The position numbers and the translations under genes were made by a program. This document shows, one piece after another, positions 14,024 through 14,926 of a stretch of 64,000 bases of DNA (positions within the stretch are counted from its first letter, which is position 1; each line of letters starts with the position of its first letter). The notes below the pieces were generated by a model. That model was not told the origin of the DNA. It did no database searches and worked only from the letters and a program-made list of their open reading frames with translations. The DNA comes from Escherichia coli (GTDB lineage Bacteria; Pseudomonadota; Gammaproteobacteria; Enterobacterales; Enterobacteriaceae): the NCBI RefSeq assembly GCF_003334305.1, contig NZ_QOWS01000001.1; one strand, 5' to 3'.

Positions 14024-14926
14024 TTAGTGGTTATTCGCTGCCAGATCGGCTTCGCTTAGCTGGGTGGCCGCGAGCACCTGGTCACGATCAATGCCCTGTT
14101 CCAGCATGCGCAAAGCAATTTTAATGGCTTGTTCATGCATACCTTCCTGCCAGCCAATTTGATGCCCTTCCTGCCGTAGCCGTTCAGCAATAGTCATTAA
14201 TCTCTCCTTTTGTAGTGGTGAACGTTCGGCAATCTCCTCAATAAAACGGGTGAAACGGGAGGTATCGCCGCATTGCAGCAGATAATTAAACAGTGTTTGT
14301 AGCTGGCTGTCATTAGTGAAGCCTCTAACCAAAAGCGTGGTGATCCTGTCGACCATGCCGATTAAATCGCGGTCGCGAATATGCTTTTGAATCAGTTCCA
14401 GCAGAGCTATACGCCGATGTTGCATGATCTCATCGTCAGGTACGATGGTGATATCCACCAACGGAAAAGCTTCGGTGTACAACTGCCGGGCAAGTTGCGG
14501 ATCGTCAAACTCATCCAGCCAGTTAGGTGAGTACGGGTAGGGCGATGTTTCGCCATGATAAAACAGCAATGGCACCACCAGCGGAACTCTGTCATAGCCT
14601 TTATCCAGGTGACGCTGCATGGCGGCAGTGGCATAGCGCATTAGCCGAAAAGCCATATTCTTTTCTGCAGAGCTTTGATGTTCAATCACGCAGTAGATAT
14701 AGCCGTCACCGTCGCTGGTTTCCACGGACCACAAAACATCCGAGTAGTAAGCGCGTAAACTTTTTTCAATAAAACTAGTGGGTTCCAGGCGTAAGGTTTG
14801 CAGGTTGCAAAGCTTGCGCAGTGGTTCTGGTAAATGTATTTCGAGAAAATCCCGTGCGGTTTCGGGTGTGAACATAAAGGTTTTAAACACCGCATCATGC
14901 GGGGAGGATGTTGTTGATTCGGTCAT
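14024..14926 (-). CDS. rpnB: Rpn-family recombination-promoting nuclease (YhgA-like/PD-(D/E)XK, 300 aa)
   Basis: 300-aa ORF with the conserved Rpn N-terminus DAVFKTFM; position next to glpC as for yfaD/rpnB in K-12. Confidence 0.88.

Follow-up and report, generated by a model that had tools for sequence, protein, structure and literature searches.

The closest described relatives of the locus analysed here are the rpn genes of Escherichia coli, each of which is arranged as a gene within a gene, with a long protein (RpnL) and a small protein (RpnS) started in frame inside the long reading frame. A Ribo-RET peak was found in every rpn gene by Meydan 2019 (10.1101/520783). In RpnA/RpnAS (yhgA) and RpnB/RpnBS (yfcI), the internal Met lies at position 244 after an AAGGAG encoded by Lys-Glu, and the K240R, E241D and M244L changes together abolished RpnAS (PMC10400941). 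RpnAS is a dimeric three-helix bundle, and an L2S2 complex has been shown (PMC10400941). For RpnA, RpnB, RpnC and RpnP2, the small protein blocks the toxicity, SOS induction or DNA cleavage of the long one; its specificity is set by the number of four-residue repeats, and in the tested pairs it acts on the cognate RpnL only (PMC10400941). RpnP2-LS belongs to the same family and has the same gene-within-gene layout (PMC10400941), although it is plasmid-borne and has been shown to protect against T-even phages, whereas the gene described here is chromosomal and part of the core genome. The same small helical domain also occurs alone, in free-standing RpnS-like genes (DUF4351, PF14261; PMC10400941), in contrast to the version described here, which is nested in frame.

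Here we analyse a 64,000-nucleotide stretch of E. coli DNA (the window), in which an earlier note had pointed to an internal start within a gene of this family. We conclude with high confidence that the gene is rpnE (yfaD) of the E. coli chromosome and that it carries the known Rpn gene-within-a-gene, RpnE-L with a nested RpnES. The arrangement is already published for this very gene and is not new: Ribo-RET, Onc112 and SPA-tag data cover MG1655 rpnE (10.1101/520783, PMC10400941), SPA-tagged RpnES was detected in MG1655 by immunoblot by Zhong 2023 (PMC10400941), and the rpnE internal product was reported to be 98% identical to YpaA, with raised synonymous conservation in yfaD (10.1101/520783). 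The features of the locus, in window coordinates, are as follows.

14024..14926, minus strand: RpnE-L full-length ORF, 300 aa, with a PD-(D/E)XK / Transposase_31 domain at residues 8-209
14285..14313, minus strand: candidate rpnES promoter, ATGACA-N17-TTTAAT (ATGACA at 14313-14308, TTTAAT at 14290-14285)
14204..14209, minus strand: Shine-Dalgarno (SD) AAGGAG of the internal start, encoded by Lys240-Glu241 (AAG GAG), 6 nt 5′ of the ATG
14195..14197, minus strand: internal in-frame start ATG (Met244), codon 244 of rpnE
14024..14197, minus strand: rpnES, 57 codons plus stop, nested in frame in rpnE and encoding the C-terminal helical domain
14138..14173, minus strand: four-residue repeat site in helix 1 of RpnES, where the repeat number varies between alleles
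13990..14016, minus strand: G+C-rich hairpin, a possible terminator, just past the rpnE stop (the terminator-like scan called it on the plus strand)

Identity and surroundings of the gene

The 300-aa ORF, taken from the window sequence and the ORF list, encodes a protein that scores 702.6 bits against NCBIfam NF007418, for which the equivalog cut-off is 583 and an RpnB-type paralogue reaches only 468. Pfam PF04754 (Transposase_31) matches residues 8-209 with E = 2.6e-87, and the TIGR01784 score is 175 bits (cut-off, 52). The window corresponds to the reverse strand of an E. coli chromosome and has one mismatch relative to strain A7 over 64 kb; its genes run men-arn-glp-nrd-gyrA-rcs-ompC-nap. 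Within this span rpnE sits between glpC and a remnant of yfaU, so that the glpC-rpnE-yfaU synteny is present. The Transposase_31 domain, the score above the curated cut-off and the synteny together place the protein in the RpnE equivalog. RefSeq uses the name rpnE in thousands of genomes, including those with identical and near-identical genes, and the MG1655 counterpart of the window gene is b2244, yfaD.

The earlier note had called this gene rpnB. By the definition of Kingston et al. 2017 (PMC5350276), RpnB is YfcI and RpnE is YfaD, and the NF007418 score, the glpC-yfaU synteny, the RefSeq names and an identity of 65% to K-12 RpnB, a paralogue, all identify the window gene as rpnE (yfaD) and rule out rpnB (yfcI). 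K-12 rpnB lies ~66 kb from rpnE, between yfcH and hisP and outside the span of the window, whereas the window gene adjoins glpC; the NCBIfam RpnA model gives 427 bits, under its cut-off of 583. Because the window gene is rpnE and not rpnB, the toxicity and antitoxin experiments performed with RpnB are not directly transferable to it.

Comparison with K-12 RpnE-L/RpnES (b2244) shows the same glpC-yfaU locus, a protein that is 96% identical and a small ORF of 56-57 aa, together with an identical 56-nt block at the internal start. The two loci differ in that the window is without ypaA (RpnESs) and its RpnES has a ypaA-type tail, in contrast to the FEREIVLATTQLTDADIPNCH tail of K-12 RpnES, and in the deletion of yfaXWV and the 5′ part of yfaU from the window. 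Across E. coli, rpnE is present in 5421 of 5426 complete genomes and is thus a fixed core gene, and its neighbours are core metabolic genes (glp, arn, nrd, men) with no defence island.

Several further observations concern the surroundings of the gene. The deletion that removed yfaX, yfaW, yfaV and the 5′ part of yfaU (window 13459-13983) leaves the 3′ yfaU remnant alone between yfaY and rpnE; in A7, RefSeq flags this remnant as a pseudogene interrupted by a stop codon, at what corresponds roughly to window 13522-13983 (+), and intact yfaU is kept in K-12 and O157. The hairpin at 13990..14016 lies between the convergent rpnE and yfaU remnant, and its T run is poor on the rpnE strand. Two overlapping small ORFs, at 14056-14190 (−) and 13996-14124 (+), were considered and set aside as without support, and an Rfam scan of 13400-15200 gave no match. 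RefSeq gives the product as ‘inactive recombination-promoting nuclease-like protein RpnE’ in MG1655 and as ‘ISNCY family transposase’ in other genomes; both annotations list a single product, and the nested small protein is absent from each. In the MG1655 RefSeq entry (region 2356904-2358001), ypaA is flagged as a pseudogene.

The internal start at codon 244

Direct reading of the sequence bore out what the earlier note had described at this site, namely a 300-aa minus-strand ORF with an ATG at Met244, an SD at 6-nt spacing and a 57-aa product; its coordinates and signal are correct because AAGGAG at 14209-14204, ATG at 14197-14195 and the 57-residue translation all match. The codons leading into the start are CAA AAG GAG AGA TTA ATG, with AGATTA as an A/T-rich spacer of 6 nt. 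Using 40 long non-overlapping ORFs of the window as stand-ins for genes, we paired the 15 nt upstream of each internal in-frame ATG with the 3′ tail of 16S rRNA. The Met244 site pairs at −8.7 kcal/mol and ranks second among 379 such ATGs. The sole stronger site, at 16310, is the annotated true start of glpC, and it was scored as ‘internal’ because the ORF lister had extended the glpC ORF upstream; with glpC set aside, no true internal in-frame ATG in the window pairs better with the anti-SD than Met244. Likewise, only two of the 379, again 14197 and 16310, have a correctly spaced SD core of 5-6 nt. By the same measure, the SD of the annotated RpnE-L start (14926) is weaker, at −3.8 kcal/mol. 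As regards glpC itself, its mechanical ORF, 15120-16385 (−), runs 25 codons 5′ of the annotated start, where the SD AGGAGG pairs at −10.3 kcal/mol, the strongest value among the scored ‘internal’ ATGs, which fits the annotation.

The strength of the signal at Met244 is not what the encoded peptide would ordinarily produce. When LQKERL was synonymously recoded with local codon usage, 0.29% of the sequences paired as strongly (P = 0.003), the mean being −2.5 kcal/mol, and the codons used there are minority choices in the local usage (AAG, 21%; GAG, 31%; AGA, 3%; TTA, 11%). In the predicted fold of 14280-14150, both the SD and the ATG lie in an open loop, and the segment shows no excess of structure over shuffled versions of itself (z = +1.1).

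To follow the signal beyond the window, homologues were scanned with one genome per species, giving 80 loci at 48-95% protein identity; three of these had disrupted ORFs, and the ATG column was counted over the 77 others plus the window. An ATG is found at the Met244 column in 75 of these 78 intact-ORF loci and lies one codon upstream, again behind AAGGAG, in the other three, a count in which the loci are phylogenetically non-independent. The SD pairing has a median of −8.5 kcal/mol over 58 distinct contexts, and the remaining internal in-frame ATGs of these genes (n = 558) have a median of −1.1 kcal/mol (Mann-Whitney p = 2e-33). The codons at the SD are similarly skewed, with AAG for Lys in 30 of 30 distinct contexts (36% elsewhere in those genes) and GAG for Glu in 38 of 47 (39% elsewhere), although these counts, too, are phylogenetically non-independent. 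The residues encoded over the SD vary by clade (QKERL, HKEKL, HEEVL, GQEDI, GGESM, NREEL, YEEAV), yet the GGAG/GAGG core is kept. Such retention of the core despite amino-acid change is what one would expect if the RNA signal, and not the peptide, were under selection.

These results bear on the alternative that AAGGAG and ATG are a by-product of a conserved Lys-Glu-x-x-Met peptide, or an SD-like pause site, and that no separate protein is made. The peptide K-E-x-L-M-T-I-A is indeed well conserved in the closest homologues, and some nucleotide conservation is hence expected from the protein sequence itself. Against this, the codon choice is far from usage, both across the homologues and in the recoding test of the window sequence, the SD core persists where the amino acids differ, and ypaA, a free-standing gene, uses the same signal. 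The alternative is also contradicted by the published Ribo-RET peak and by the immunoblot of the tagged rpnE product (10.1101/520783, PMC10400941), and we consider it scarcely credible. The internal start signal of rpnE is clearly functional.

Of the 5426 complete E. coli genomes, 5413 contain the 56-nt block around the internal start, which comprises the SD, the ATG and the first codons. Because MG1655 and the window are identical over this block, the published start data for K-12 rpnE should apply at the window site. The three residues whose combined change abolished RpnAS (K240, E241 and M244 of RpnA) occupy the same three positions as the SD and start in the window.

Taken together, these features suggest how the two proteins may be produced from one gene. 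The weak-SD start at 14926 would yield the 300-aa RpnE-L, with a PD-(D/E)XK nuclease fold followed by a C-terminal helical domain, and the start at Met244 (14197), with its strong AAGGAG in an unstructured stretch, would yield the 57-aa RpnES through far more efficient initiation.

RpnES, its repeats and its candidate promoter

The RpnES mRNA is probably short and would arise from an internal promoter near 14313-14285. Synonymous-site identity at codons 203-216 (window 14285-14320) is 0.53-0.56, compared with 0.42 overall, and within the RpnE/RpnB clade, 16 representatives with 60-69% protein identity all share CTAATGACA-N17-TTTAATTA without change. At this position, homologues further away carry TGnTAAACT, a sequence that resembles an extended −10. 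A consensus promoter scan of 13900-15150 returned no sigma-70 site inside rpnE; it missed this candidate because the −10 element has T, not A, at position 2. ATGACA-N17-TTTAAT is accordingly given as a candidate for the promoter of a short rpnES transcript, since the consensus scan was negative and the site was picked up through conservation only. It is predicted to place the transcript start near 14278, with a leader of ~80 nt. Zhong 2023 (PMC10400941) state that there is a dRNA-seq start site inside all rpn genes; in the text of the Cappable-seq and SMRT-Cappable-seq supplements, no start-site coordinate near MG1655 2357540-2357640 was found.

The C-terminal domain of RpnE, with its variable four-residue repeats 8-20 residues after the internal Met, matches the RpnAS crystal structure 7TH0 (49 aa) by both sequence and profile. 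Residue 1 of 7TH0 falls on Met244, with identity over the first 11 residues, and a profile built from 42 deduced RpnS proteins covers the whole of 7TH0 (E = 2.9e-12). The N-terminus is common to RpnAS, RpnBS and RpnES, the RpnB version being MTIADRLREEG. When K-12 RpnB is started at Met244 (gaaAAGGAGaaactgATG), a protein of 53 aa results with Asp at position 29, which fits the ‘stop at D29’ RpnBS construct of Zhong 2023. By homology with RpnA, RpnB and RpnC, RpnES would be a three-helix bundle that dimerizes via its long first helix. Pfam gave no DUF4351 match at the C-terminus of the window protein.

The same profile search also returned designer pentatricopeptide proteins, with E down to 5e-19, as apparent RpnS relatives, yet no single stretch of these exceeded the threshold. 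They were rejected because their score is a sum of many weak helical repeats, the sole full-length match being 7TH0. Such an additive helical-repeat artefact, seen here with the RpnS profile against the PDB, could mislead automated annotation.

The length of RpnES varies at the repeat site in helix 1. Alleles from O157 and from outgroup Escherichia carry 2 to 5 extra four-residue units, starting at RpnES residue 17; in O157:H7, for instance, RpnE is 308 aa long, with QEGKLEGL inserted after RpnES residue 16, and RpnES reaches 65-77 aa in other Escherichia species. Across the homologues, the small protein has a length of 1 modulo 4 in 63 of 80 cases (53, 57, 61 ... 85). The window allele, at 57 aa, has the shortest repeat region of the seven intact alleles compared from the genus Escherichia. 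Tandem Repeats Finder reported no DNA tandem repeat in the small ORF of the window because the four-residue repeats of this allele are too few and too diverged. In the rpnE of Escherichia whittamii (one genome), an in-frame stop at codon 185 truncates the long protein, and the promoter-candidate region, the SD and a 77-aa RpnES ORF are intact; the small gene may here have survived the loss of the long one, or the stop may be a sequencing error.

RpnES also exists in a variable number of copies. In K-12, a free-standing copy, ypaA, directly follows the stop codon of rpnE; it shares the SD and ATG and opens with the same AAGGAGAGATTAATG, and its tagged protein was detected by Zhong 2023 (PMC10400941). 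The 56-nt block occurs twice in over half of the complete E. coli genomes (median, 2 places per genome), the second copy in K-12 being ypaA, and once in the window and in the outgroup Escherichia species. In the window, the 5′ half of RpnES resembles K-12 rpnES and the 3′ tail resembles K-12 ypaA, with the switch falling within a 38-nt identical stretch. As judged from these sequences, such a mosaic would fit either an ancestral single-copy form or an rpnES/ypaA fusion of the kind mentioned by Zhong et al.

RpnE-L, RpnES and the question of function

By analogy with the characterized Rpn proteins, RpnES would associate with the identical domain in RpnE-L, giving an L2S2 complex that keeps the nuclease inactive, and the number of four-residue repeats in helix 1 would decide which small and long proteins pair. 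The antitoxin action of RpnES on RpnE-L is inferred, and for RpnE it is based on homology, because the functional experiments used RpnA, RpnB, RpnC and RpnP2 while RpnE looked inactive. Toxicity, SOS induction and rescue have been shown for RpnA and RpnB, whereas RpnE was, upon overexpression, the sole paralogue without toxicity, SOS induction or a recombination effect (PMC5350276), so that a toxin in need of an antitoxin is a prediction in its case. No toxicity, rescue or phage test of RpnE is reported in Zhong et al. 2023 (PMC10400941). The earlier note had proposed an intragenic antitoxin of a toxic nuclease. Its first element, an in-frame internal start that makes the C-terminal domain separately, stands on conservation, the alignment with 7TH0 and the published MG1655 data; its second, a toxic long form, conflicts with the inactivity of RpnE in PMC5350276.

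A possible, though in our judgement rather unlikely, explanation of this inactivity is that RpnE-L has decayed and is non-toxic, although RpnES is made, and that RpnES is a leftover or serves another role, such as a buffer of other Rpn proteins or a helix-turn-helix DNA binder. The lack of activity in all three assays of Kingston 2017 (PMC5350276) speaks for decay, as do the word ‘inactive’ in the MG1655 RefSeq product name, the fixation of the gene in the E. coli core genome, where it is surrounded by metabolic genes and not part of a mobile island, and the single E. whittamii genome in which the long frame is interrupted upstream of an intact SD and small ORF. Other properties of the gene are at odds with decay. 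Mutation of D11, D63, E82, Q84, R94 or D165 affected RpnA (PMC5350276), and all six of these residues, which RpnA needs for activity, are present in the window RpnE; D11, D63, E82, Q84 and R94 are invariant in the three rpnE alleles compared. Alleles continue to differ in the repeat region, which would be expected under selection on L-S pairing, and RpnS action was specific to the cognate long protein in the tested pairs (PMC10400941). Moreover, as Zhong 2023 points out, the 2017 RpnA and RpnB constructs co-expressed RpnS unknowingly (PMC10400941). The 2017 constructs carried the internal start, and we infer that RpnES, co-expressed with RpnE in the same way, could have masked its toxicity.

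Returning to the reading of RpnE-L as a nuclease held in check by RpnES, strains with a single copy, that is, without ypaA and with a short 57-aa small protein bearing a ypaA-type tail, suggest an extension that we regard as speculative and improbable. RpnE-L could in such strains be a working nuclease checked only by the nested RpnES, the K-12 ‘inactivity’ would be a co-expression artefact, and the allele may be an rpnES/ypaA recombinant. If this were true, the recombinant allele would be a natural example of a repeat number and tail re-paired with a nuclease domain.

The earlier note had also placed the arrangement in the context of antiphage defence, which is not supported for the window gene. 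PADLOC, with a database from 2023 that may predate Rpn, gave no match to the long or the small protein, the neighbours are core metabolic genes, and phage protection has been shown only for the plasmid-borne RpnP2 (PMC10400941). The case for a phage-defence role of rpnE is weaker still than that for an antitoxin role.

The value of this analysis lies in correct annotation and not in discovery, since RefSeq lists a single product, ‘ISNCY family transposase’, for a gene that, in K-12, is translated mainly into the nested small protein. It also illustrates that a strong in-frame SD-ATG can be detected in raw sequence and validated by codon-level conservation. What is particular to this locus is limited to three points: the small gene is present in a single copy, its repeat allele is short, and the rhamnonate genes next to it are deleted. 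E. coli genomes with one copy and those with two (ypaA) are about equally common, which may bear on the balance between the long and small proteins.
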